A stretch of DNA of 64,000 nt, taken from the NCBI GenBank assembly GCA_045837725.1, contig JBEWZL010000239.1:496001-560000 (forward strand). Direction: 5' to 3'. The stretch's first letter is position 1, and each line of letters starts with the position of its first letter. The stretch is from Vermamoeba vermiformis. Lineage: Eukaryota. The position numbers and the translations under genes were made by a program. Shown here in pieces: positions 16,402-57,500 of the stretch. Under the pieces are notes generated by a model that was given only the letters and a program-made list of their open reading frames with translations, was not told where the DNA came from and did not search any database.

Positions 16402-19400
16402 TTACAAGATTCTAAACTCAGCGCGGCCCAAGACTTCATTGACTTTGGTCTTGTTGTCCATAACTTTCTTGCGCAGTTTGTCTTTCTTATTGGCCATGCG
16501 CGCCAAGTACTTGACCATCACCGACACGGTGCTCTTGCTGTTCATCTGGTCTTCAATGCAGCGCAAGTAGATCAGCAGACCCGTGTCAATGCGCGCTGTT
16601 TGTTGACTGTCTTCAATGTCCATCATCTTCGAGAAGAGCTTCAAGAACGGATCAAACTGCATGTAACTCAAGCGCGAGATGCCTTCAGTAAACACGGAGA
16701 AGAACAGCTTGGTCATCGCTTTGTCCTCCCAACACGCGTGCTGGGCAATGCGAACGATGGCACGAGGGTCAATGTCATCGCGGAGGAGTTTGTAGAGCAT
16801 CGTCTGATAGGAAAAGGTGTTAGAATATTGCGTGTGATAAATTACGAGTTTGACACGTGTCACAAAAAAAAAAAGTGTCAAATCGGATCCGTACCTTATT
16901 GAACAACTGTTCGGACTCCTCAGTGGACAAAGTGAGTGGCTTTTCAACGCCAACCAGACTAGGTGGCGGGGTGGTGCTGACCTTCTCTCCAGGCGCGCGA
17001 CACGAGCACACAATGGTCGCAATGATCTCGCCCATGTTGCCGAATCGCGTGGGTCCAGACATGCCTGAAATGATCGTGCGAGGTGCAAAGACCGATTCTT
17101 TAGCCTGTTCTGGCTTTTGAGAGGATGGCGGGCTCGGTGAAAATTCGCCACGTTGCAAGTACAAATCGAACAACTTCGAGATGACCTTTCGGCGCAACAA
17201 GAACTTGCGCTCAGGCATGCCGAGCTTGGCAAACTCGGCAATAACTTGCAAGAATTGATCGGCTGGCTTGCGGTAAGTGAGCTTGAACGAGGTCAACATG
17301 TACTCGATGAACCAGATCACGTAAGAAGCTGGTGGCTTTGACGGGAACTTCTCGCTGATCTGTTTGCGAGTCTGTTTGTAGAGCTTGCGCTCAGAGGGCG
17401 CGAGACTCAACAGCGCATTGACGATGAGTTCGGCATTGGCTGATCGAATGAGCACTGAAGGCAAGTTGACGAGCAGTTCTTGCAACTCATCGGGGTTAGC
17501 CATCAACTTGGTCAAGAGCCACTTGCAAGCCTATTAAGAAGATTCACGATTAGACTTGACACTGTGACAGGTGTCATTAGGCGTGTGGTACTTACATCGT
17601 GATTGAGTTGGTAGAACTTCTTGAGACGATTGATCCACAACGGGAACATGGTCTTCTCGCGTGCTCGTGCGTAAACATCAGTGACAAATCGTGTGGCGAA
17701 TTGAATCATCGCAAATTCAGCGTCGTATTCGCTCTTCGTGAACGGCTTGATCTTCCTCTTGCTCTTTTGCAGCGATTCTTCACGTGACTTTTCAGAACTT
17801 GAGCCCTTGTCCTTCTCGCCCGAGTTATTGTTGTTAGTGTTGTTATTGCTCTCTGGCTTCTTTTCGTCTTTCTCGTCCTTTTTAACATCGTCTTTTTTAA
17901 CGTCGTCCTTCTTGTCATCCTTCTTATCGTCTTTTTTGTCATCCTTTTTGTCGTCTTTCTTTTCATCTTCCTTCCTTGGCGACACGACGTCAGGAGCACC
18001 AGGCTTAGGACCGTCATCTTTCTTATCGTCCTTCTTGTCGTCTTTTTTCTTGTTCTTATCGTCCTTTTTCTTGTCATCTTTTTCTTCCTTCTTGATGACC
18101 TTGACCTTGTCTTCAATCTTCTTGGCTGCGCTCTTGTTGTGAGAGTTGCGGGCTCGGTCAGCGTCGAGGAGATGTTCCGCTTGTGTGATCTCTAGCGGCA
18201 ACTCGTGAGGCTTGGGACTGTACAAATTGACCAAGTTCCAAATGAAGTTGAAGTAGTCTGCATTGAACACGTGTTTCTCCATAATAAACGATCGGTTCTC
18301 GCTCCAAATGTCATTCAAAATTGGCTCAGGGACTTCAGCCTTTTGACCATTCTTCGCGTACTGCAGCAACATCTCGTAAAATCTCGATCGGGACTCGTCA
18401 TTGGCATTGTTGCTATTCACATTGTTGTTGTTCAAAGCCAACTCTTTATCGCCTTCCTTCTCCTCCTTGATGGCCGTCAAATGTTCTTCGTTCTTTGACG
18501 CCACATTGGTATTGTTCTCAGTTGAAACACCTTCATTCTTCATGGCCTCAACGAGTGTGCCGTGAGAGCTAGACTTGCGCAGCTTGGCTTTGCTGGCCTT
18601 GGTCACGGGCACGTTCTCAACAGACTGACTTCGCTTCATGCCTCCTTCGCCCAACAGCAATTCCTTGGGTTGCTTACGCTCGTAAATCAAAATGTAAGCG
18701 TTATTGCTGCGTGTTCTGATTCGCTTTTCACCAGTGGGCTTGTTGTCAGGACCAAGGATCGGGATCTGATCTTCACCTCCGAAACATTCTTCAGGGATCT
18801 GGTTCACGTCGAACGGCAAGACAGTCGTGTCGTTGAACTCGAACCATCGAACTTCTTGTCTGCCTTGGATGGGCATGCGTTCTTTGATGAACGAATAGTA
18901 GTGACCAAAGTCCGTGCTGCCAGTGTGCACGACAACACCTGAGAGTTCGTACTCGTAGTACTCAGTCGGGTGCAACAGATTCACTTCGAGGCTGTCTTGG
19001 GATGTAGCGCCCTTGAGCAGCTCTTTCTTCTCGAGGCCTTCTTTGGTGTAGGGCTCAAGATTGATCGTCATCGGGAAGACGAAGCTCGTGTTCAATTTCT
19101 CGTATCTCATCTTCTCGTAGTCGAATTCGAAGCGCTTCAAGTGCAAGGTCAAGATAGGTGGCAAGTTCTTGACGACACATCGCTTCAACGTGTCAACCGG
19201 CTTTTGACATGTCTCGCAGAAGTACTTGTTGTCACCGGTCAACATTTCTCCTTCGACGAACAGTTCAAAGGACTCTTGCAAGTTCTTCTTGTCCTTCACT
19301 TCAACTCCGATTGTGTAGAACGGCTCGTCAGTCTCTCTTCGGTGACCACATTCAGGGATCAGTTGGTTGCAAAGAGCACCGCCGAAGACGTCCTTGAGAG

Positions 19401-22400
19401 TCTTTTCTTGAGGCAAACCCTTCAACTGGTTCTCGAGCTTGTCGAACAACATGTTGAAGAACTCGTTGGCGTCCATCTGTTGTGAAGTGTTCACGGGCTT
19501 GCCGTTCATGTCCTTGTAGGAGTGACAGAAGTCAATTGTGTCAAAGAACCTCTTCTCGCTTTCTTGGAGATAAGCGAACATGCGTTGCATCTGATACAAC
19601 AGGTTGTCGTTCTTGTTGAGTTCTTTGCCCTTGTCTTCAGCCGATAGAATAGCCTGACGGAATGGAGGGATCAAATACAGCTGTTGAATCAACGAGTTCA
19701 TGTAGCACGTGGCACCTTGGTTCTGAAGACCAACGTAGCCGTGCTTGCTCTTCTCTTTGCGAGCAGGAGCGAAACCAAATTCGTTGCCCAAAGTCACTAA
19801 GAGGGGTTAATACCACAGCATTTACGATCGAGTAAAAATCGACTTACGTGAGCGAAGTTGAAGGTTCAACAAGTCAATGATGTCCTTGAAGTTTTCAGGG
19901 CAATCACGAGCCAATTCGGTGAGCAATCTGAAACAAGCTTGACGGCTGTTCTTTGTCTTGCACTTGGCACCGTAAGGACCGCTCTTGACAGGTGATACGG
20001 GCACTGCAAAGAGGCAGTTGTTCAGCACTTCTTCGAGCAACTTCAACTCAGCACATTGTTGCTTGAAGCTAGAGTCCTTGCGCACAATTGCGTAGATCAA
20101 ATTGATGACACCGATCAACACCTTGTCCTCGTCAGAAACAGATGAAACTTCTACGATCGGGTGATGAATGACTTTGTTGGCAAAGTCAGAGAGCAACTCG
20201 GGTAAATCTTTGCCTTCGTAGTCCTTCATCAAATGCTCCAGTAATTGGAAGTACTGGTCGCAGCCGTCAGCGTACTTCTCAACTTCCTTGAGCACGGACA
20301 ACAACAGCTTGAACAAAAAGGCAGCAGGAGGTTCAGGAACCGCTTGCAACAAGGCCCTATTTGCCTGATTAGCACCCATTTGAAGATCGTGCATTGTTAC
20401 TTACTCTTCCTTCAAGAGTTGCGTGCTGAAGGCTGTAATGCCCTTGGTACCCTCTTCGCGGATCTTAGGCTGAGGTGACTTCAACACGAGGCACGTGAGC
20501 CAAGTCTTCAAGTCAGCGTAGTTGTAGAATGATAACAACAACTCTTTGTCAGACAAGATGCTTGGAACGAGCAATGCCATGGCTTGTTGAACAACGGCAG
20601 CATCATCTTCATTCGAGTTGACGTTGGCAGGTTCTAATAGCGAATTAGTTTGAAGTTAAAAGTCAGGAACAATGCCGTACCAGTTGCCTTGAAAATAATT
20701 CCCATCAATTTCTTGACCAAGTCAGTCATTGAAATGTCGCCCAAAAGGTTCTTGTTCAACACCATGAAGCGTGTCTTGGGATGTTTCTCTAACACTAAGT
20801 GGTTGATGACTTTGAGCAGGTGAGCAAAAGCCTTCTTGACACCAATGTTCCAATCGGCGTCATTGACAGAGAAGAGAAGAGGCAAGACAGGTGTCAGCAC
20901 GCTCTTTTGAATGGCTCCCATATCAGCCTCTTTGTTTCTGATGTTCTTTTCGATCATCGTCTCTGTGATCTGCAAGTTATACACGAGCTTGAACAAGTGC
21001 TTGTCACTGAAGTCAGCGAATGATTGGTCGTCAGCAGAGACTTCAGTCTTGGGAATCAAGTTGAGCAATTGCCACACTTGATAAGCGATATTGTCGTCGG
21101 CATCTAACAACTGATACAAGTTCTTGAAGTACTGTGATTGCGACAAAATTCTGCTCGGGTGGTTGGGGCTGTCCTTCTTAGTCTCCCCGCGGATTTGTGC
21201 CAAGTTGGAGAAGAAAGCAGCAGCGCTCTTGGACTTGCCCTTCTTGTCGTCATCACGCTTCAGGAATGATTTGTACGTTTCACTGACGACACCAATACCA
21301 CTCAGCGAGTGTTGAATGACATCGAGAAGCATTGGCATGAGCGGTGTTCCCTCCTAAAAACGAGTTAGATTTTGTTACAACATGTCAATTATGGCCGTAC
21401 CTCGTAGATGAACTCCTCTCGCTCGACTTTGCGAATAGTAATCTGAGCCTCGTCGGACAATTTGTAGTCAATCAAAGTCTTGTCATCATCACGAAGTTCG
21501 CGGTCGTTAGGACCAACAGTGACGCGCAAGTCATCGCTTTGATCGAACTTGAACAACTCGACGGCCTTCTCTTTGAGGGCTTGCAGGGTGGTGGTCGTGT
21601 TGAAGATGACCAATTGTGGCTGTTTGTTCGGTGCCTTCAATTGAACCTTCAACTGCATGCCGGGCCGTTCACCCTTATTTTGAGCTTTGTTCTTTGATTT
21701 TTGATTATTGTCAGGCTTCTTATCAAAGTTCTCGACGTAGTTCTTGAGAAGTCTCAAAGTACGCTCTAATCGCTGTTTGTTGCCCTCGTTGTCAGGTTGG
21801 CTAGCAGCCTTGTGCAATCGATCCATCGAATCGGCAATGTAGTCCTCGCGCATCTTCGTGGACTTGGACTTTGAGCCCAAGATCTCAAAGTTCTGGTGCA
21901 AACTGTTGAGCGAGTTGATGGCCATCTCAGCGACAGCGTTGTCTTTGTTATCGAGCGCAATGTCCCAAAGAGTTGACATGCCGATAGCATCTGACGCGAC
22001 CAAACACGGAACTTTGTCTTCAAAGCGCTTGATTCTGTTGTTCCTCTCGTTGATGAACACGAAGAATCGCTCAAACACGGTGAAGCCTGCCTTGGTCAAT
22101 ACTGAACAGTCCATCTTGAGCATCTTCTCGAACAAGTGTTGCACGACTGTTTCAGGCAATGTGCCGCCTGAGATAAAGTCCTCGAGCCACTTGAAAGTAA
22201 TCTCCATTTCTTCAGAGCTCAGCGCTTGCGTGATGAACGCATTCCAAAGAGTGTCAATCTAACACGTGTCAGTACGATGGTTAATTATTAAGTAGTAAGT
22301 GGCTTACTTGTTCAGTGTTCATTTGGTCGACAACACTCGAGTTGGCACGCAAATAAGACAAGAAATTCAAGCGGAGTTGGACTTGATCCAAGTGCGTCAA

Positions 22401-27194: not shown

Positions 27195-28752
27195 ATGGCG
27201 GATTTGTCCTTGATCGAGGATTTACTTCACGACGCTGCTGACTCCCAGTATAAGAGGCTTAAAGACGGGAAAATACTCTCTTTGGCACTTGCAAGTCAAT
27301 TTTTTAAGGATGGCGTCATTACGCTGTCCGGAGTTTCTTATCTGTTCGAGAAACACGTGTTGCGATCCATTCCAGATGGTAAGCAGCGCTTAAAATATAT
27401 ATAATTTATATACTGACACGGACGCAGGTAAGCTCATTAACCTACTCCAAACTCCAGAACTTGAACGAGTCTGTAAGCTTTGTACTCGGGCTGGATCTCG
27501 CGCGGTTGTTCCTTCTGAAGCACTTGCTGCAATTATTGCTGCTAAAGTCACGCACAAAGAGCTTCCTCGAGTCACAAATGGCACGGACATTGAAAGCTAC
27601 AGCAACAAATACAACAATGCCAATTTGAACGAGTCAGATCGGATCGCACGCGTGTTCAACGACGAATTGACGTGCGTAGTATGCATGGACACATTAGAAG
27701 ATGCTGTGGAGAGCAGCTGCTGCAAAACAATGTGCTGTTTGAAGTGCTCAGACAAATGTCCTAGCTGTCCTATTTGTCGCAAACAAAGCATCAAGTGGAC
27801 GGCAAACGAGCCTATTCGCCGCATTGTCGGCAAGAAACCAGCAAAGTGCCCGCACAAAGATTGCTCGCAGTGGTCAACAGCAGCTGAAATCAACGTTCAC
27901 AAAGAGAAGTGCGAGCATAGAATTGTGAGCTGTACGAACAGAGGATGCAACGAGAGGATGAAATATTTAGACCTCAAGACACATACTACAATGAAGTGCA
28001 AGTTCAGATTCGAGACGTGCGATGTGTGCAAGATTCAGATGCCGCATGGTGTTAATCACAATCCACGCAGATGCATCTGGAACTGTGGCCAAATACTGTG
28101 TAACACTACAGCCAAAGATCACAATGACACGTGCACTTACCGCCCTGTGCGATGTAAGAACCGTGATTGCCGCGAAGAAGTGCAAAAACGATTGCTTCAA
28201 GATCACTTGCAGAACACCTGTCCGTACCGGGTAGTTCAGTGCCCCAACAACAAGTGCACAGTTCGAATGTTCGCGTGCACAATCTCAAAACACACTGACA
28301 TTTGTCCTGAAGCACGAGTGAACTGCAGATATTGCAATATACCGTGCTACAGAAAGAACTTAGACAGGCACGAGGGCAGTTGCAGAAAAAGGCCAGTGTA
28401 CCAATGCGATCACTGTTCAGAATGGTATTGGGAAGGCGACAACCATCCCAATGTTTGCCCCGAGCGCTACGTCAATTGCTCACACTTCAAATGCCCGCAG
28501 ACAGTGAAAGCTAAAAACCTCGCCCACCATGAGGAGCTGTGTCACTTCCGCAAGGTCAGCTGCACAAACCGAGGATGTGACAAAGTTGTCTTCTTACACC
28601 AACTTCATGTCCACGAAACCCAACAATGTCCGCACCGTTACATTGAATGCGACAACTGTGGCAAAGAGATGCGTGCGTGGAAAATGAAGGGTCATCGTTG
28701 TTACGACAGTTCGTCCGATAGTAGCTCCAATAGCTCTAACAGCTACTACTAA
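27195..28752 (+). CDS. LOTUS/OST-HTH-like + RING + tandem TRAF-type zinc-finger protein (paralog 1)
   Basis: ELTCVVCMDTLEDAVESSCCKTMCCLKC...CPICR RING, then many C-x4-C...H-x3-C TRAF fingers; one intron in the N-terminal domain. Confidence 0.8.
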
Positions 28753-29099
28753 GGATATAGCGACCAACTCGGAGTTGACAACCGTTTGTGAAACCGTGTA
28801 AAATAAACTTCTTACTTCAAAGAAATTCCTTTGACTTTTAAGTGAAACAACACAGAGCAAGCAATAACGTTGAGGTCCTTTCGTATTTTTTTCAACAATT
28901 TATTGATACACACTCGAGCAAAGTAAGTGAAGGACTAATGAGCCCTCTTAAATAAATTAATTGTTCCGATCCAACAAGATCCAAATTATTTGCCCTTCTT
29001 TCAGGTTAAAAATTCGGCTGTCAAGAATTTTAGTATATATTGATTACCCTGATGTTATTTCTATATTGATATAAATTAATAAAATACTGCAAACAGGAA

Positions 29100-31539
29100 A
29101 TGGATTTTATGGACAAGTTTAATAGCCTATCTAGAGATATGGCGAAAAAAATGTACATCGTGCATAGCTCTGGTAAGCCAGACGACGAAGCGCAATTGTT
29201 TGAATTACTCCAGCACTGCTTCATGACCCAAAATATGGTTAAGATCAGACTCAGCGAGATCCCGTCACTGTTTGAAAGAATGTATTCCAGACCTCTTTCT
29301 GCCAAACGTAAGTGCACGAATGATTTTAAGTTTTTCTAATCCATGCAGTAAATCTCGTTGACTTGCTTCGATCCCCGAACCTTAGCATTATTTGTGTCGT
29401 CAAACAAATGAATCAGCTCATATGGATTGAACCTACACCAGAATTTGCAGAGATGAATAAGAAGGTTCAAGAAATGCGTCGATTGTACGTCGAACCTGTC
29501 TTAAGAAAAGAAGCCGAAGAGCAGCGCCGTCAATTTGAAGCCCAAACTGCTCAGTTCAATGATTCGGAGTCAGATGAAGAAACAGACGGCTATTTACAGG
29601 ACGCGCCGTTAGAACACACGCCGCACTACAAGATGTTTGTGGTTGAGTTCAGCGAGACCTTACAACGGATCTTCCAAGACATTGACTTTGGCATTGAGGA
29701 CCACACGGACTTGTTGTGGCTCTACCTCATTCACTTGTTCACTATTTCCAAGAAGAAGTACAGAGTTTCAGTGAGCGAACTGCCCGAGCTGTTCCGCGAG
29801 TATTACGGCCACACTCTCGAATTGTCAAGTAAGTCCTCGGCAAAAATATCGAACTCTCGCTAATAACGCGGCTAGAAAAATTGATCGCGACGTTGCAAGA
29901 AGACTGCTACCTCGTGTGTCAAACTGAAAAATTCAAAAATGATTGGCACGTCAAACCGTCGGAAGAATTGGTTCATTTTCTAAATTCGTACACCGGAGAA
30001 GAGTTGCAGGAAATTATTTCATATAATCTCGAGGCACTGCAGGAACGATACCAGGACTGTAGACCCGATGACGATTTTCCAGCCTATGAAGTCGAGCCAC
30101 CTGTGCAGAAGCCAGTCACGCAACAAACCAAACAAAACACAAATGATAAGACCAAAGCACAGTCAAACAATGCTAATTCATCACGAAGTGGACAGAAATC
30201 CAACGAGCCAATCTTAAGAAGTGGTTTCTTATTGGCACAACCTTCGAATAACAATACGAGCAAATCTAGCAGCACTCAAAAACACCAAAATAACAATGCT
30301 AAATCGACTTCACAATCCAATCAACGACAAACACCTCCAACGCAACCCAATGTTAACACAGTACCAGCCTCTCCGCTCGTCTTGAATGGCACGGATATTG
30401 GCACTTATGGCGCCAAAGGACGTGAGCTAGCAATGAAAGAACATCTCGAGAAGGAACAAAAGAAAGCTGAACAGGCTGCTGCCAACAACAAACAAGCGAG
30501 TCAAGCACAGTCAAAGCCAGCTCAACAGACACCGCCTCGCAGTCAACAAAACAATCGTAGTCCCTCGAGTGAGAGAAGTAATAAGGCCTCATCAAAAGCG
30601 CGCAACAATAAGAGCCCTGGTCAATATGTCAAGAAGACAGAAGTAGCGAACAATACCAACACCAATTCAACACCAAGTCCTGAACCTAGTGCTCAGCCCA
30701 CAACTATAACCTCTACTAGCACTAGTTCTTTGATCCCGAAAAACGACGTTCAAAAGCCCGCACCCGTTAAGCCTTTATCTGAAGCGGAACAATTAGCCGA
30801 CACAGTAAAGAACGAGTTCAGTTGCAATATGTGCAATCAGATCCTCCGCCGTCCAGTAGAAAGCACGTGTTGCCACAAGCTCGTCTGTTACGTCTGCTCG
30901 TTGTTCAATGGTCTGTGCCCGCTGTGCAAAAAGCCCGGACAACGTGTCACGTGGGTCGAGAATCACGTGGTCAATCATTTGATGAATCGACTGACAATGC
31001 CATGTCCGTACAAGCAATGTGACGAGTGGGTCCCTCTCAACGACATATTCTTGCACAAAGACCACTGCGAACACAAGCCGCAGCCTTGTCCTAACAAAGC
31101 ATGTGGTGCCAGCAAACACTACTCGGAACTTGACGCGCACATTGACACGTGTCCCTTCACTGTCATTACCTGCGCGTGCAAACAACAAATCAAGCGACGA
31201 GATTTGGAGAAGCATTTAGCCACGTGCAAGAAGAAACAAGGCACCGGTCAACAGAATTCTGCACCTGCTCAACAGAAGCAACAAGAGAAGCGCTCTAATC
31301 AAGTCAAATGTCCTTATGGCTGCGACGCACAAATAGAACAAAGTGCACTCGAGGCACATGGCAATCAGCTCGTTAATTGCACCAATTACGGCTGTCCCGC
31401 AGTGCTCAAACATAGTGACCTGAATGTGCATCGAAACGCGTGTGCGTACAGACGAGTGCCATGTACTAATGGCTGTGGATGGCAAGATGCAGTAAAGGAC
31501 CTGAATAAGCACCAAGCTAACTGCAAAAATAGAAAATAA
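29100..31539 (+). CDS. Two LOTUS/OST-HTH-like domains + Q/N/S-rich linker + RING + TRAF zinc fingers (paralog 2)
   Basis: IRLSEIPSLFERMYSRPL and VSVSELPELFREYYGHTLEL repeats; EFSCNMCNQILRRPVESTCCHKLVCYVC...CPLCK; TRAF fingers. Confidence 0.8.
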
Positions 31540-31640
31540 ATTCTCAGAATTCGTTCTGCAGAACGAGTTCTCCTTTTTTTAGAACATTAGTACTTGCATG
31601 TCAACCACATTAGGTGACAAACTATTGATCTAGAATTTTA

Positions 31641-33418
31641 ATGTCTTGGCCAAGAAACGGTAAGCCAAAGGACAGCACGCTGATGCAGCTGCGCAGCCTT
31701 TAAAATTTTCTCTATAATATATTGATTTAATGATTTATTAAATAAATAAGTTATAATATCAAAATCTATTTGTCCAAGGTTCGATTAATGGAAATTAAAG
31801 AAAATTAAATTTGGATCTGATCCCTGAATTTCATTTTTAGAAACCAACGAAGAAAAAGAGCTCAGGTTCGTTCCGTACACGATAATCGATGGAGCTGCGG
31901 AACTAGCCATTGATATGCAAAGAGATTGCAACAGAATGGATCATTTCTTGCCACTGTACTTTGTCGTTCTTGAGGAGCTATGTAGCAGACAAGGAAGCGA
32001 TATAGACTTGTCCGAGATCCCCAAACTATTTGAAGAAAAATATGGCTACAAGCTGCAGTTAGATTGTGAGTTAGAAAATTTCGTTCTTTTTCCGAATCCA
32101 ACTAATTTTCCGTTTAGCCAAACTCTGCCATGTTCTGCGGCAAGGTGCATTCCACAAAATATGCAGTCTAAACTCTCACGGTCCTCCTCGCAAGATCTCT
32201 CCATCGCCAACGTTCTTCCGTATCGTTCGTCTTCAGTACCAACAGGAGGACGTTATTATCAAGAGACTAAATGAAGCCGAACAAAGAGTCAAAGCTGCCG
32301 ATGAAAAGGTAGTATTGTTAACAAAGTCGTTAGAAGCACGACCTGAAGACAAACTGACCAAAATGTTGAGCGACGAGTTGACGTGTGTCGTTTGTTTGGA
32401 CACGCTGAACGAGGCCGTGGAAAGTGAGTGCTGCAAAACATTGTGCTGCCAAACCTGCTCGACAAGCCTACCCGTGTGCCCTATTTGTCGACAAAAAGAC
32501 GCGCACTGGCGCGGGAATGAAGCCATCCGAAGGTTGGTCGGCAAAATACCTGTCAAATGTGACACCAAAGAGTGCACCGCGTGGTCTACCAGAGCAGAGA
32601 TCAAACTACACAAAGACCACTGTGAATACGTCGAGATTAAATGCTCCAACAAAGAGTGCACGTTCACTGCCAAACGCAAGGACTTCAAACCACACATTGA
32701 CACGTGTCAACACGCCATGGTCAACTGCACGCACTGCCACCAACAGATAATGAAGAAGAACGTCGCGCCTCACGAGTCCATGTGTGCAGAGCGAACCATA
32801 CGGTGCACAGTGTTTGGCTGCAGTGTCACGGTGAAGGCGAAAGACATGCCACAACATCACGAGGTCTGTGACTTTGTTGCACTCAGATGCACGAACGACG
32901 GCTGCACCTTCACGGTACAACGTCAGAACATGAAGGATCATCTGTCCAAGTGCCCAGAAGGCGTACTCAAGTGTACCTATTGCACTTACAAGTTCAAGCG
33001 CAAAACCGTCCATTCCCACGAGCGCGGCTGTTCGGTGAACTACGTCCAGTGTTGGTGCGGCGATTACATCAGAAAGCGCGATATTAGAGCCCACAGAGAT
33101 CACTGTCCTCAGGCTCCTATTGCGTGCAGAAACGATAGATGTCCAGAACGCATCATACCTCGTCATATGGACACTCACGTGAACAATCAATGTGACTGGA
33201 CTTACATGCCGTGTCGTTGGAACGATTGCCCAGATCAGTTCACGCGCAAGTTCATTCAACAACACGAAAGTAACTGTTGGTACCGCGATGTCTCGTGTCG
33301 TCATTGTGGCTTGGAGACCTCGCGCAATGCACTCGACGACCACTTGAGAGCGTGCAAACGACGACGAAGATACTCACCTTATTTACCTCAATGTGCTCCA
33401 TGCGCATCCATGTATTAA
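31641..33418 (+). CDS. LOTUS/OST-HTH-like + RING + TRAF zinc fingers (paralog 3)
   Basis: MSWPRN first exon; IDLSEIPKLFEEKYGYKLQLD; ELTCVVCLDTLNEAVESECCKTLCCQTC...CPICR; long TRAF-finger array. Confidence 0.8.
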
Positions 33419-33475: not shown

Positions 33476-34202
33476 TTAGACTTCAAATGCTTTGAGGCCT
33501 TGTTTGGGGTCGTATTTGTACGGGCTCTTCAATGGGCTGTTGCGCACTAACACTTCATTCAACTGCCGCTTGCGATCAATAATTCTTTCTACGAGTGCAT
33601 CGAGCTGGTTGATTTGTTCTTGAATACGGACTATAATCTGTTTTTTCTTCACGCGTAGTTCTGAAGACACTATCAAGCCATCCAACTTCAACATCTGTTG
33701 CATAAACTCTTCGTCGATTGATTTGACGATGTTGTCGTACTTAACAAGTTCTTCTTTGTCTGTTCGTTCTAATATGCTCGAATCTGCGATAATTCTGGCA
33801 CTGCGGCGTTCCATATCGGCAATATCTTCTTCTATGTACATTAATCGCTCATCCGCTGAGGCGTATTTTCGATGACATTTTCCGCAAACTTTTACTGGCT
33901 CGTTGTATCCGAAATCTGATATGGTTGTTTGTAAATGACAGCAGCTATTGCAAAAGCAGAAACCGCATCCGCGACAAACGTTCTTGAAATGACCAAATTA
34001 GTTTTTAAAAATCAAATAGACATTGAAAGAAAGTATTTGATGATATGTCATGTATTGTGTATAAGTATTTGAATTATTTTAAAATATTGAAATTGGATCC
34101 CGAATTTCTCCTTACTTTTGTTGACCAGAAGCGGAATGTTTGTTGACAGCCCGAGCAATTATCTGATGGTGTTATCTTAGGCCTTCGTTTGATGTGCGAC
34201 AT
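33476..34202 (-). CDS. FYVE-type zinc finger + BAG domain protein (2 exons)
   Basis: Spliced: MSHIKRRPKITPSDNCSGCQQTFRFWSTK-NVCRGCGFCFCNSCC...PVKVCGKCH, then IDEEFMQQMLKLDGLIVSSELRVKKKQIIVRIQEQINQLD (BAG consensus E...LLKLD...R..RK..V..IQ..L..LD). Confidence 0.75.
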
Positions 34203-34331: not shown

Positions 34332-37300
34332 TTAGACCTGTACACTTTGTTGCAGCGGGATGTCGAGTGGCTGCGGTGTACCAGTGCCCGTGTTGCTGCT
34401 CTTGGTCCACTCAGTCTGCGTGCTCGTGTTCTCTTGCGCTGCTTCTTTCCACTTCTTCTCATGCTGCTTGCGCTTCTTGTATTTCTTCAATGCTATCGGG
34501 AAGATAATTGCAAAGCCAATGATCAGCACACCAGCCACAATGACAATGTAGATGTACTGTTGCAGGAGACTAGGGGACGTGTCAACGCTGTTGTCGAGGC
34601 TGTGATCGATGACTGTAATGTCAGGGTCATAGTCGAGGGAGTTGCGATAATTGGGCAGTGTGAATTTGATGCGCCCAGAGCTCACAATGTAATTGAAATC
34701 GACAGGCTGGATGGTGCCATCAGCCACGCAGAACAGGGCCATGGAAGCACGCACTTCTGAGTACTGCGTGGAGATTTGATAGCGCGAGACCTGCTCACTC
34801 GAAACCTTGCCGTCTTGTACCAGTTTGGAAGTCAAGGCTGGTGCGTCCTCAAGGACTAAGGACGTAGTCAACACCAGTTTGTTGGTGAGCGAAGAGAAGG
34901 GCCAAGCACCCAACTTGATCGAGAACTTGATCGTGTTGGCGTCAATTCTGAACGAAGCTTGGCCGCCGTTGATTTGCAGCTGTTGGGCGTTGAGCAAATG
35001 TGCGAAGGTAATATCCATCGGCACGCCAGCAAGATCAGTTGAATAGACCTTGTGATAGAAGCCATTCAAGTCTGTGTAGTTCCATCGTCCACGACTCAGA
35101 TCGAACACCAGCACCTCTGTCACAAAGTTAAATTAAGCCTCGTCGATGAATCAATGTCCAGCATACCTTGCCCCTCGTCATCAACTTCAGCAATCTTGTC
35201 GAAGGTCATGCCCGCACCCACTGCCACGTATGACTTTTCCACAGGAGCAATCATAAAGTTGGGCAGCGAGTCGTTGGGGTATCTGATGTAGATGGGCTGT
35301 GCATCTTCTCCGAACACTGTCGCTTCGGATGTTTGAGGCGTGTTAGGCACAGGCACGAACACTGCTCCTGGTGGCGCTGTGGGAGCATTGGGGTCCATGC
35401 CGTCGTGCTCTTGTCCATTCACTCGCAGTGCGACAAATGAAGGGGGCATGAAACTCAGCAGTGTGCCGTCGCCATAACTAGTGCACAAATGTTAGTGGCT
35501 ATCCATGAGATAACTTGTTAAGGTACGTACTTAGTGCGATCAAATGTCGCTAACAAAAGAGCACCTTGCGTGCTGTTGATTGACACCAATGAGCCTGCAA
35601 ATCGACTCTCAGGCAGCAGGGTGTCGGTGAGTGAGTTAGTCGTAGCAAGTGTGTATTGGAGATCGTTGTCGCCATCATTTGGATCACCGATACTAACGAT
35701 GTAAATGCAGCCGGTAGGTCCACTTGTTGTGGGACAACGAGGTGCACCAATAGCAATGTCAGGCCTCTCATCGCCATTCACATCACCGACTGCACCAATC
35801 GAGGCACCCCAAAGACTCGTGCCATTGCCAGGTGCTATGATCTCCGCCGGCTCGGGTAAGTACATCACTTGGGACACAGAGCCGTCCAAATTGAGGTAGA
35901 TAAGAATGACGAGCGTGCGTTGAGGCAACAAGGTCAATGATTCCCAGAAGCCAGGACGGTTTTCCCAAATGTACAATGTGACCGCTATTTCAGACACACC
36001 ATTGTCGTTCAAATCACCAATGGGAATAGCTTGCACACCAAATGTGGTACGACCAACCTCGTCCTTGAGGCCCGTTAGTTCGATATTCTAAGCAGTCCTA
36101 GTCTAAGTAATTAAACTTACCGCTGTGATGTTGATGCCAGCGGTCTGGCTGTTGAGATACAACTCCGCATTTGACACTTCTTTGACACCCAGAATTCGAT
36201 TGTCGTAGCCAAGAACGATGAGGTAGACTGTTCCTTCAATGCTGTTTGAAGTCTGCATATTTGACATGAGATAAGGACCAGTCGCGGATGCAATCAACAC
36301 AATCGTCTCTTGCAAGTGTGTCACGCTCAACGAATAGCCAAAATAGCCTCGGTTGATCTTGTCTTGATTGTACGTGTTGACGAGGCTGTAAAATGTGATG
36401 TTGGCAGTCTTGTCCAAGCACAGCACGTGCACTGCGCCCACCGTGTTGTTAGTGCCCGGGGCACCGACGCCAAAGCACGAGCCACCATTGACAGTTTGAG
36501 TTTTGAGAGATGTCAGCGAAGTGCCAAACAGATCACCAGGCTGCAATGTGCAGTTGAAGCCACGTGATCGTGAATCAATAATCACGTGCTGCAAGATAGT
36601 CACGCCTTCACCGAGCAACAGCAAGTGCAATCGGCCTCGCATGTCTGCATCCCACGGCAAACCAATCACAATGTCTTCGTAACCATCGCCGTTAACATCG
36701 CCTGCTGACTCGATGTTATAGGGACCAGTGGCGTTGATTCCAAACTGACTGAGGTCCACCATTCGGAACGAGTCGATCACGCCATTGCAAGTTTGATTGA
36801 CTGCAAGAACCCGCTATATTAGGCATCATATCATTATTGTAAAGTCATGCTACGTACCATCGCCAAAGCAAATGCCACATCTATTCATCGCTTCGTTGTT
36901 TCCAAAGCAGATGCCACAACGATCTTTGTTTCGATTGTTGCCGCCACAAACACCGCAACTGTCAATCATGGAAGCATTAGGACAAGCAAAGCTGACTTGA
37001 ATGCCACGCATTTTCGATTGGTTTATAATAATTGTACCGCTGGGCTCCGTTCCTATTGTATTTTGCCGATAATTAATACCAAATTTAATTATTGGCGTAA
37101 AGATAAGAAATCAATGTATAACCGTCTACGTAGTTATGTTTACGAGCGTAGAAAAATTTTCCGATCGTTACTAATTATGATTCAATAGTTTTCCAAAATT
37201 TTAATAAATTACCTGTGGATGGAACCAATTCCGGCACATAATCCGCCCAAATTTCGCCGTCTTGAGCAGAACCAGCGAATGCGCTGAATGAGAACGATAT

Positions 37301-54592: not shown

Positions 54593-57500
54593 TTAGTCTT
54601 CCATCTTCTCTTCGGCGGCCGTTGGCTCTTCATCCCGCTTCTCCTGTTGCGGGGTCGAGCTTTCGACTAGAGACTCGTTAAGCGCATCTTCCTTGTCCTT
54701 AGGCTCCGCATTATTAACATTAACGTTATTGTTATTATTGTTGCCGTCACTCAAGGGTGTTGAAGGAGCAATACGCTTGGTCGGCGAGAGTTGCTTTGGA
54801 TCGCGGATGCGCTGCTCACGATTGAAGGCGCTGTTGAGAGCCGCATCGTCACGACGACCGAATACTGGTGTTTGTGTAGCAGAAGCAGAACCTCCTGTGC
54901 GAACTTGAGATAGTTCAGCTTCCCGCTTGGAGATCTGATCGAGCGCCTCTTTGTACTTGACGACTAATCGTTGAATAGACTTGTTCGTGCTCATAATAGG
55001 GAGCAAGTCTTTCAACAACTTCCTCTTATCGAGACCCTGTTAGAAAACGATTAGCACTGGCTCTAAACTTAAATCCTTAGGGCACGCACCAAAATTGTCG
55101 TGTTCCACTCGCCACTTTGTACTGGACGGGCACTGGTCTGGTGTGCGGGATAGACCCTGTAATGCGTTAGTATCAAGAATAATGTGCACCAGTAGATTGT
55201 CGTACTTGTGAATAGGTCCGCGCAGGTCGTGACACACCTCTTCTAGTCGCAGTGTGTTGCCGTCTTCAGACAACTTGCGCACGTAAGCTTTGAGCCACTC
55301 TTTGAACTCGCTGACCGAGTTGAGTGCAATAGCCGAGGCCATCATATTTTCAAGGTGAGCCAAGGTCTCAGCGGATTGGTCGCGCGAGTCAAGGTGCAAC
55401 ATTTCAGTCGGTAACATGCGCACTTTCTTCTGTGCCGCTACTTGTAATCGACTGAGCAAGCCACGAGGACTAATGCGATTGGCTTCGACAATTGAATTGA
55501 ACAGACTCGTTGTGAAGGACTTGTCGGCAATGCGGACCCAAGTCTTCATGGAGGAGTGGTACGTGAATGACTCGCCGCTGGACATGCTGACAATGCACTG
55601 ACCAGTCTCGCTGACTTGTGTGCTCTCAATGGTCACCGTGCCTGATAATAAAGACGCTACTGAGCCTGTCATTTCCAGTGCTTGCTGTTGAATGTTCCAA
55701 ATAGTCACGCTACAATCTGTGCAGATCGCCATCAAATGTGATGTCTGATTGACTTCCAAATACGCTGCTTGGCTGTTCAACATGATGCACGGTAGCAGCT
55801 GTGGTCAAAGTTAATATACGCACAAAATATACTCCAAGAACGTACCCTTCTGCCCGCAGGTGAAAATACGTAAAGCGAATTATCTCGGCAAGCTACTGCA
55901 GCAAAGTTCTTATTTCCCGCTGCGAGACTGGCCTTGCCCTTGATAACATCACGCCACCGTACGTTACTGACGTCCTTTTCTTCGCTGTTATTGCGACCAA
56001 CGACGTAACTGACAGCTGTCACCATCTCTTTTTCGTGCTCCGATGATGTGGCCTCGATGAAGGCGTCCATTGGTTGACCATTGTCGTTGAATACGAGGAG
56101 TTGTTTGACAATTGCGTCTTGTTCGACAGGAGCAGGAAGTGTCGGGCCAACAATGCGTGTCGCTGCTCGTTTGCCTGGAGGTGACTTCTCGCTCTCCTCG
56201 ACGCGCTTTGACTTGCCCGTCTTCGCTTTCTTCTTTGCTCTGTTCTCTTCCTCTTCTTCCTCAGCTGGACGCTTCCTCTTCTTTTCTTTTTTCTTCTCGG
56301 TTGTTTTGTCTCCCTCCCCTGCTTTGTCTTTATTTTCTTCCTCAGTGGGCTGTGCGGTGATATCAATTGAGCTAATTGTCACTGTCCCAGTCTCTTGTAC
56401 TGTGGTTGTGGTAGCTGCACTTGGTGTTGCTTCGGTTGGCTTTTGAACTGTTTCAGAAACAGATGTAGTGGTAACTTGAGTTGCGGAGGTTTGTGTCGTT
56501 GCATTGGTAGGCGGAGGTGACGACACTGTGGTTGGTTGAGAGAACTGCGCGGGCGCTGCGACCGCTCCTTGACCCAAAAACTGAGGAACGATTCTTCGTT
56601 TGCCGCTCGGTAATCGAGTCTCGGATTGAGGTCTATTTAATGGCGGCAGTGGCTGTGCTGGTTGTGCCGGAATAACAGCTTGCAGAGAATTCGATGAAGT
56701 CTGTAGCAAACCCTGACTGGATTCACGCTCGAGTGCCATTAAACTCGGATCTTCTAACAGAGTCTGCGAACTTGCTGCTTTCACTGAGTCGCCGTACTGT
56801 TTTCGCAACATCTCGTCTACTTCCATTTGGGACAAGGTTTCGCCCAATTCGTCTTTGTTGAACTGAATCATAGCTATCGTGCCGTCGGAGGAACAGGCCA
56901 ATAAGACGTAACCATCGGCAGTCCTAAATCGGATTAGACCGTGTAACAAGGTTGTATATATCTAATGCTTACCAGGCCAAGTCCAATACACTTTGAGTAA
57001 ATAAGTTTTTGAAAACAACGACAGGTCTGTACGCCTTCGTCAGCCAAATTGAAATTAAATAATCTTGACTGGCAACGGCACAGCAAAAGAATTGACCTTC
57101 ATCGTGCCTTCTAAATACTCGAGGGCTGAATTTCTAGTGCACAATAGTTAGCGAGATTGCAACGTCAATTGGTTACATACCGTGCAAGTAACGCTCAATG
57201 AGTGGCCAACAAAATCTTTATCTCCCTGCCATTTACCGCCTCTAGGAATAATAGGCGCGACAAATCTTCCTTTCTTGACACCACCCGCTGCAACAACGAA
57301 TTGTCCATCAGGTGACCAACTAAATAAAAGATAAGTAAAATATCGATAATTAATATAATAGAGCGCGTACGCAGGACGTTTGTAAAATGTGTTGTGTGGG
57401 GCTTTTCTGAACGGCTTTGTAATTCTGAAATCTTCTTTGTAATCGCTCATTCGCCAAACAATTGCCGATCGATCATCAGACTGCAGCATGATTAATTTTC

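Follow-up and report, generated by a model that had tools for sequence, protein, structure and literature searches.

Three adjacent Vermamoeba vermiformis genes join a probable divergent LOTUS-like domain to a RING-type finger and a row of TRAF-type zinc fingers

Here, we describe three adjacent genes in a 64,000-nt stretch of DNA from Vermamoeba vermiformis (hereafter the window; all coordinates are positions in it). The genes lie at 27195-33418 on the + strand and encode modular proteins of one design. An N-terminal domain of about 85 amino acids (aa), present in four copies across the trio (one in the first gene, G1, two in the second, G2, and one in the third, G3), is followed by a RING-type finger and a row of TRAF-type zinc fingers. 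The fold of this N-terminal domain, or N-domain, is a winged helix as judged from models, and, of the families compared, LOTUS (Pfam OST-HTH) has the strongest support as its relative, from profile-profile comparison and from the structural neighbors of one of the two models. We consider it likely that the N-domain is remotely homologous to LOTUS and can be described as a divergent LOTUS-like domain. With somewhat less assurance, we favor the view that the three proteins, each having one or two such domains, a RING and a TRAF-finger row, are ubiquitin ligases or adaptors directed at ribonucleoproteins (RNPs). RNA or helicase binding, E3 ubiquitin ligase activity and a cellular role are what we infer for the trio. 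LOTUS domains are best known as organizers of germ granules in animals. To our knowledge, hardly any tests have addressed what they do outside animals or the link to ubiquitination that is predicted for them. The locus, a compact and transcribed set of three paralogs, provides concrete constructs for asking whether LOTUS-type domains aim ubiquitin ligases at RNPs.

The gene structures and their splicing, the intron-less transcript-like contigs, the domain content, the fold of the N-domain and its similarity to LOTUS in particular are shown here. The genes were delimited from frames and splice sites as G1 (27195-28752), G2 (29100-31539) and G3 (31641-33418). Their features are as follows.

27195..28752, + strand: G1, 502 aa; exons 27195-27378 and 27428-28752, from open reading frames (ORFs) and splice sites
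27379-27427, + strand: G1 intron, 49 nt, phase 1, GT..AG
27252..27555, + strand: putative LOTUS-like winged-helix domain of G1, aa 20-104, split by the intron
27673..27777, + strand: RING-type finger of G1, aa 144-178, from the Cys pattern and Pfam zf-C3HC4_3
27847..28701, + strand: TRAF-type CCHC zinc-finger array of G1, aa 202-486, at least 9 units
29100..31539, + strand: G2, 783 aa; exons 29100-29307, 29349-29828 and 29876-31539
29308-29348, + strand: first G2 intron, 41 nt; a second G2 intron has 47 nt; phase 1
29172..29467, + strand: first putative LOTUS-like domain of G2, aa 25-109, from alignment, BLASTP and hmmsearch of the window
29675..29997, + strand: second putative LOTUS-like domain of G2, aa 179-270, from alignment and BLASTP
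29998..30822, + strand: linker of G2, aa 271-545, for the most part of low complexity, with S, N, Q, P, K and T abundant
30823..30927, + strand: RING finger of G2, aa 546-580, its ligands in the canonical C3HC4 pattern
31003..31524, + strand: TRAF-type zinc fingers of G2, aa 606-779, at least 5 units
31641..33418, + strand: G3; exons 31641-31659, 31841-32065 and 32118-33418
32066-32117, + strand: G3 intron, 52 nt; a further G3 intron of 181 nt lies upstream; both from contig joints
31915..32242, + strand: putative LOTUS-like domain of G3, aa 32-123, split by the 52-nt intron
32384..32488, + strand: RING-type finger of G3, aa 171-205, with Lys at the His-ligand position
32558..33355, + strand: TRAF-type zinc-finger array of G3, aa 229-494, 10 fingers

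The four peptides by which a preliminary description of this DNA had pointed to the N-domain copies were all found in the sequence. Outside the trio, the 64-kb window has no other copy of the N-domain or of the RING-TRAF portion. The composition of the G2 linker was computed on residues 301-535, and the Pfam domain search gave no match within the linker (aa 271-545). The start of G3 can be placed in two ways. Translation from the ATG at 31641 gives a protein of 514 aa, while the ortholog P0001 begins at a Met that matches position 31915; the ATG at 31641 would add 31 residues.

The introns that interrupt the N-domains (49, 41, 47 and 52 nt) all have GT..AG ends, are in phase 1 and fall at one common codon, directly 5' of the (K/N)-L motif with which the third helix begins. 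This common position, noticed in the preliminary description, was confirmed by our reading of the splice sites. Introns of the host sequence are very short. Contigs from two public runs, X1 and X2, were aligned to the trio, with 95-100% identity to the window. That these runs consist of RNA is only a guess, which detracts from our reading. Three of the four N-domain introns are skipped exactly by intron-less contigs. The G1 intron (27379-27427) is precisely absent from contigs of both X1 and X2, and contigs of X1 alone skip 29308-29348, 32066-32117 and the 181-nt intron upstream of G3. The latter, which also has GT..AG ends, was missed in the preliminary description. The first record of X1 (861 nt) consists of 27198-27377 joined to 27427-28107 and runs from the N-domain exon through the RING into the first fingers. 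The N-domain exon of G1 is in this way joined to the RING exon, as the preliminary description had supposed. The transcript-like contigs of G1 pass through the stop codon with no other joint. The second intron of G2 is bridged by none of the contigs listed from X1 and X2, and its junction is present in the spliced relatives P0002, P0003 and P0016.

Some further contigs at G3 can be mentioned here. The 19-nt exon piece that holds the ATG (31641-31659) comes from one X1 contig, whose shorter side has just 27 nt. One X2 contig (1023 nt) skips 82 nt within the TRAF-finger exon, at 32905-32988. The ends of this gap read CT..AC on the + strand, equal to GT..AG on the minus strand, and the gap would shift the frame of G3 if read on the sense strand. 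Possible explanations are an antisense transcript that has an intron here, a variant with a deletion between finger repeats, and an artefact of assembly. The raw RNA-seq runs X12 and X14, which carry another species label, match only 32663-32710, a 48-nt segment of one TRAF finger, with 90-99% identity. The flanks are unlike on both sides, so that these matches are uninformative on the genes of the trio; they suggest that the other organism has a related transcript with such fingers, rather than G3.

The four N-domain copies are homologous as judged from their sequences. Five of the six pairwise BLASTP comparisons, made in a four-sequence database, have E values of 2.6e-8 to 6e-4, and the remaining one, G1 against the second G2 domain, is not significant (E 1.3). 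The G1 copy is the most divergent of the four and matches the G3 copy at 2.4e-5 and the first G2 domain at 6e-4. The first and the second G2 domains match the G3 copy at 2.3e-7 and 2.6e-8, respectively. The common intron position adds independent support for this homology. G1 and G3 are collinear from within the N-domain to the C-terminus, with 29.7% identity over 454 aa (E 6e-59). Overall, the paralogs are 26-30% identical, which indicates that they are old and not the product of a recent expansion.

The family to which the trio belongs is small in the libraries covered. A profile, A4, made of P0001 and the unjoined exon fragments of the window, matched 15 of 1,835,955,588 representative proteins at E<=0.001, and 12 of these are credible family members. 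The other three, P0007, P0008 and P0009, were rejected as repeat proteins that match just a short motif or a compositional stretch. Two of them, P0007 (1112 aa) and P0008 (939 aa), are long proteins of repeats of about 55-60 aa, each with a motif like L-x-E-V-K-x-L-Y-x-x-K-Y-G-x-D-V-D, which aligns with helix 2 in the N-domain profile; the repeats of P0008 sum to 33.9 bits for OST-HTH, with no single stretch that passes.

P0001 is the ortholog of G3, keeps its architecture and has the junction in spliced form; its identity to the last exon is 58%, over 97% of the length. The orthologs of G2, with 49-53% identity and the architecture of G2, are P0002, a Trinity transcript from EukProt, and the two JGI proteins P0003 and P0016. 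Seven of the 12 credible members (P0004, P0005, P0006 and P0012-P0015) are unspliced ORF calls in the representative library. In all seven, homology ends at the N-domain intron site and is followed by Gly-Lys or Arg-Lys. These tails are the expected read-through of a phase-1 GTAAG donor, and the intron position is therefore conserved in the relatives too. P0005 is the read-through ORF of the first exon of G2 in the window itself. A further member, P0010 (546 aa, transcript-derived), has 32.5% identity to G1 over 206 aa. It consists of an N-domain, a RING in a Lys variant and the first CCHC finger, followed by an RRM (3.5e-7) and, at the C-terminus, an MLLE/PABC domain (2.2e-12).

Pfam zf-TRAF (PF02176, curated cut-off 27 bits) matches G1 in four stretches (E 3.7e-13, 50.4 bits), G2 (2e-8, 35.2 bits) and G3 in five stretches (2.2e-24, 86.4 bits). 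With scores above the cut-off and repeated CCHC units, all three genes belong to zf-TRAF. Additional matches were found to Sina_ZnF in G2 (4.9e-5) and to zf-TRAF_2 in G3 (2.3e-6). CCHC units counted with a regular expression number at least 9 in G1, at least 5 in G2 and at least 10 in G3; these are lower bounds, as the expression misses some units that share a Cys with a neighbor. A phmmer search with the last exon of G3 against the PDB sequences gave 14 matches at E<=0.001, among them the TRAF units of TRAF6 (8.2e-5), TRAF5 (1.1e-4) and TRAF4 (1.8e-4). In the solved TRAF6-type units (PDB 5vo0 and 3hcs; TRAF5, 7l3l; TRAF4, 2yuc) a RING is likewise followed directly by TRAF-type CCHC fingers. 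However, the trio differs from these units in having up to 10 fingers, an N-terminal winged helix and, in G1 and G3, a Lys in place of a RING His. No Pfam match to a MATH domain was found at E<=1 in any exon translation of the trio, and G3 is directly followed by a convergent gene. Without the coiled coil and the MATH/TRAF-C domain of the TRAF family proper, the three are not TRAF proteins in the strict sense. The composition given in the preliminary description for every gene, a RING with many TRAF fingers and no MATH domain, agrees with these results.

The RING itself is less uniform. Pfam zf-C3HC4_3 matches G1 with E 3.4e-5 (24.0 bits), G2 with E 0.0094 (16.2 bits) and G3 with E 1.7e-5 (24.9 bits), in each case under the curated cut-off of 27 bits. 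The cross-brace spacing of the eight zinc ligands in a C3HC4 RING (C-x2-C...C-x-H-x2-3-C-x2-C...C-x2-C) fits G2 and P0003, which keep the His, the fourth of these ligands. In G1, G3, P0001 and P0010 this His is replaced by Lys, and an alignment with TRIM21 sets the Lys of G3 opposite the TRIM21 His. An adjacent Cys pair directly before the His/Lys position is kept in all six proteins (G1, G2, G3, P0001, P0003 and P0010).

The low RING scores and the lost His both count against a trio of active ligases. Some RING proteins are inactive halves of heterodimers, and G1 and G3 might be catalytically inert scaffolds or adaptors whose RING-like finger dimerizes or pairs with an active partner such as G2. 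The distribution of the residue, with Lys in G1, G3, P0001 and P0010 and His in G2 and P0003, speaks for such an arrangement, and so do RING scores below the gathering cut-off. On the other hand, the RING segments of G1, G3, P0001 and P0010 still hold at least 8 Cys. An extra Cys is found 3 residues downstream of the lost His in G1 and G3, with none in P0010, and it would make an all-Cys ligand set possible. Furthermore, the RING region of G3 still matches active RING E3 ligases of the PDB at about 1e-5 (TRIM21 2.5e-5, cIAP1 6.4e-5; also TRAF6, and further matches are cIAP2, BIRC7 and MYLIP), and P0001, the ortholog with 58% identity, retains the Lys variant. We regard it as rather unlikely that G1 and G3 are inert. 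For the catalysis that is predicted, the RING of G2 is secure in its form, and that of G1 and G3 is uncertain. The name of E3 ligases, applied to all three genes in the preliminary description, is insecure for G1 and G3.

The identity of the N-domain was approached by comparison of profiles and of structural models. An N-domain profile was made from 10 spliced domains, namely the four copies of the window, P0001, P0002 (two), P0003, P0010 and P0011. The OST-HTH reference consisted of 57 bacterial domains above the cut-off of Pfam PF12872 (23.8 bits), from five phyla and one sequence of a sixth, with two genomes flagged as unpublished excluded. The two profiles were aligned with hhalign in local mode, as the global mode gave a meaningless end-to-start overlap. 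The alignment scored 25.0 (P 1.8e-4) and spans 51 columns, from β1 to β3, in the expected register. A reversed control scored 9.9, the maximum was 17.9 in 193 column shuffles and 23.3 in 200 block shuffles, and thus 0 of 393 shuffles reached 25. Two further winged-helix families were compared (30 sequences each), and the N-domain profile scored 11.6 with PadR and 11.3 with ArsR. As a positive control, PadR against ArsR gave 51.2, which shows that the method detects kinship between winged helices where it is present. The similarity to OST-HTH is in this sense specific relative to PadR and ArsR, at an hhalign probability of 48.8% and with a bacterial reference. An earlier OST-HTH profile, limited to myxobacteria (19 near-orthologs, number of effective sequences (Neff) 2.5), had scored 16.8 (P 0.017) and is superseded by the set of 57. 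When the family profile was run against 177,635 PDB sequences, the top match was TDRD7 LOTUS2+3, with both copies in register (E 0.077). The N-domain has a shorter α2-α3 loop than the bacterial OST-HTH set, without the aromatic-Gly segment that is usual there.

AlphaFold2 models were made of two divergent relatives, P0001 (residues 1-100) and P0011, which stand in for the copies of the window. The P0001 model has a predicted local distance difference test (pLDDT) score of 84.2 and shows the order α1-β1-α2-α3-β2-β3, followed by a further helix. The P0011 model has a pLDDT of 73.8 overall, and of 70-90 across the domain, with the same order α1-β1-α2-α3-β2-β3. Both modelled relatives have in this way the order of a winged helix. 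Searched without bias against 48,161 PDB representatives, the P0011 model found just three chains at Z>=8, and all of them are LOTUS domains: Oskar (Z 9.2; root mean square deviation 2.2, 73 of 76 residues aligned), TDRD7 (8.6) and TDRD5 (8.4). Ranks 4 to 6 are taken by Egalitarian ED1 (Z 7.7), the LOTUS domain of Tejas and LOTUS3 of TDRD7, and the first unrelated chain has a Z of 7.4. In Foldseek, the same model placed the LOTUS domain of MARF1 at ranks 1 and 2, and LOTUS chains occupied six of the ten top rows. The α1-β1-α2-α3-β2-β3 order is shared with the LOTUS domains of Oskar, TDRD5, TDRD7, Tejas and MARF1, which are the best structural matches to the P0011 model, and the sequence identity to solved LOTUS domains in the structural alignments is 11-22%. 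All neighbors of the P0001 model are winged helices. Its best chains in the unbiased search were Stn1 (Z 7.3), Oskar (7.2) and the WHB domain of cullin (6.8), and rescoring of its top Foldseek chains gave Oskar 7.4 and Stn1 7.3.

A number of results weigh against the assignment to LOTUS. PF12872 was matched by 0 of the 13 sequences and fragments of alignment A5 at E<=10, nor was it matched by full-length P0001, by its first 100 residues or by the exon halves of the window. By the Pfam cut-off, then, the N-domain lies outside PF12872, and membership in LOTUS is an inferred remote homology. No canonical LOTUS protein was among the matches of the A4 profile at E<=0.001 in the 1,835,955,588 representatives. 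The hhalign probability of 48.8% is short of one half, and the reference behind it is bacterial only. The two structural models share most of their alignment and are not independent, and AlphaFold was trained on solved LOTUS structures. No Foldseek match at E<=0.001 was obtained for either model. Finally, the P0001 model ties LOTUS with the winged helices of Stn1, cullin and MCM at Z 6-7.3. Other searches gave little in either direction: phmmer of P0001 1-100 against the PDB found nothing meaningful, a look-up in the ESM Atlas with P0001 1-92 gave no usable match, and word-indexed protein searches returned close relatives only, none with PF12872.

The alternative to which these results lend themselves is that the N-domain is a winged helix of a general type, not related to LOTUS in particular, perhaps a protein-protein or DNA-binding module like cullin WHB, Stn1 or MCM, and that the three proteins are ordinary TRAF-finger RING ligases with no RNA link. 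Along with the missing PF12872 and Foldseek matches and the near-equal Z scores of Stn1, Oskar and cullin WHB for the P0001 model, the sole Pfam hint agrees with it, a weak and sub-threshold match to the Rok winged helix (E 0.0087). Such a generic origin does not explain why the only chains at Z>=8 for the P0011 model are LOTUS domains, why the hhalign score against OST-HTH stands well above the shuffles, PadR and ArsR, or why TDRD7 LOTUS is the top PDB match of the sequence profile. The fusion of the N-domain to an RRM and an MLLE domain in P0010 speaks against it too. We find a generic winged helix doubtful, and keep to a divergent LOTUS-like domain as the probable identity of the N-domain. 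The LOTUS assignment of the preliminary description is supported, then, at the level of the winged-helix models, the structural neighbors of the P0011 model and the hhalign comparison, and does not extend to detection of PF12872 itself. Of the HHpred and Foldseek comparisons proposed there, the profile search, for which hhalign served as substitute, came out in favor with its score of 25.0, while Foldseek was led by LOTUS for P0011 but gave no match at E<=0.001. If the assignment is right, part of the LOTUS superfamily escapes standard domain libraries.

TRAF6 recruits its ubiquitin-conjugating enzyme (E2) through the RING and the first TRAF finger. By the same principle, the RING and first TRAF finger of the trio would recruit an E2. 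Targeting to an RNP would fall to the LOTUS-like domain, of which G2 has two, through RNA that is G-rich or structured or through a DEAD-box helicase. The row of TRAF fingers, which is probably rigid, may act as a scaffold or a surface for oligomerization, and together with the putatively disordered linker of G2 it would supply multivalency. Both kinds of partner, such RNA and a helicase of this type, are described for LOTUS domains in the parts of the literature drawn on here (PMC7498356, PMC8331183, bioRxiv 10.64898/2026.03.28.715021, PMC13186709). The RRM and MLLE domains carried by P0010 indirectly support an RNP-linked role for the module of N-domain and RING, and, on what its sequence suggests, this fusion supplies the best contextual argument that the module may act on messenger RNPs (mRNPs).

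A more specific version of this scheme can be outlined. The helix that follows β3 in the P0001 model is a feature of extended LOTUS domains and recalls the extended class that binds Vasa, a resemblance which is weak (the Oskar-Vasa complex 5nt7 aligns to the model over 86 residues with Z 6.3). The trio might thus be extended-LOTUS ubiquitin ligases outside animals, in which the LOTUS-like domain with its trailing helix docks a helicase or RNA and the arm of RING and TRAF fingers ubiquitinates the same RNP granule. We think this improbable. If true, the LOTUS-helicase axis of animal germ granules would predate animals and would here be wired straight to ubiquitination, and P0010, the relative with RRM and MLLE, would be a form of this machinery devoted to poly(A)-mRNPs.

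In animals, TRAF-type RING-finger units take part in innate immune signalling. That the trio might be TRAF-like adaptors of cell-autonomous immunity, in which the winged helix senses foreign nucleic acid and the RING and fingers relay, is the least probable of the explanations: it is drawn by analogy only with those animal units and with the viral and host Z-alpha winged helices that appear low in the structural lists (e.g. 1sfu, Z 6.4), while the proteins have no MATH/TRAF-C domain for receptor docking, the paralogs are too old, at 26-30% identity, for a recent expansion, and the neighboring genes (a USP9X-like deubiquitinase, a BAG-FYVE protein and HIRA) are housekeeping genes. Of the roles suggested in the preliminary description, neither immunity nor germline-like RNA control found support in the results.

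We retain the view of RNP-directed ligases or adaptors, and compare it with what has been described. The preliminary description did not recognize the architecture, but the general idea is not unprecedented. Proteins of plants and of several lineages of protists in which OST-HTH is fused with B-box, U-box and RING domains were already in print in 2010, in the part of that paper drawn on here (Anantharaman et al. 2010, PMC2848206), with a proposed role in modifying RNA-bound proteins or in regulating RNP assemblies (PMC2848206). The OST-HTH and RING fusions in that part of the paper have, like the trio, a LOTUS-type winged helix and a RING-type E3 domain in one polypeptide; the trio differs in an N-domain that lies below PF12872 detection and in a RING followed by 5-10 TRAF-type fingers. 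The term 'TRAF' occurs 0 times in the main text of PMC2848206, and its Figure 2 and Additional file 1, which hold architectures and lie outside this comparison, could contain a closer match. No paper on a LOTUS, RING and TRAF-finger architecture was found by title or by the start of the abstract. Within that range of the literature, the combination of a LOTUS-like domain that escapes Pfam, a RING and a long TRAF-finger array, and its variant with RRM and MLLE, were not found in print, whereas the general idea is known.

Compared with the LOTUS proteins of animal germ granules, the trio is without Tudor, NYN or OSK partner domains. Egalitarian ED1, which ranks fourth among the structural neighbors of the P0011 model, deserves mention as well. 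According to the part of the report consulted, Egalitarian ED1-ED3 (PDB 9rvy) are winged helices that bind RNA localization signals and, in the words of their authors, closely resemble LOTUS (PMC13186709). Unlike the N-domains of the trio, they sit in an RNA adaptor for dynein with exonuclease homology and without a ubiquitin ligase domain.

The genes around the trio give no functional hint for it. On the - strand, a convergent ORF at 33476-33997 ends about 60 nt or less from the stop codon of G3 and has a FYVE zinc finger (3.7e-6, just below cut-off) and a BAG domain (1.3e-8). About 5 kb upstream of the trio, also on the - strand, ORF pieces at 16402-22258 belong to a large deubiquitinase similar to USP9X/UBP24, with matches to UCH (2.8e-55), DUF3517 and ARM_UBP24_USP9X-Y. 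The window also has ORFs with FG-GAP repeats at 35518-36813, pieces of HIRA at 55040-56961 and a WD40 protein.

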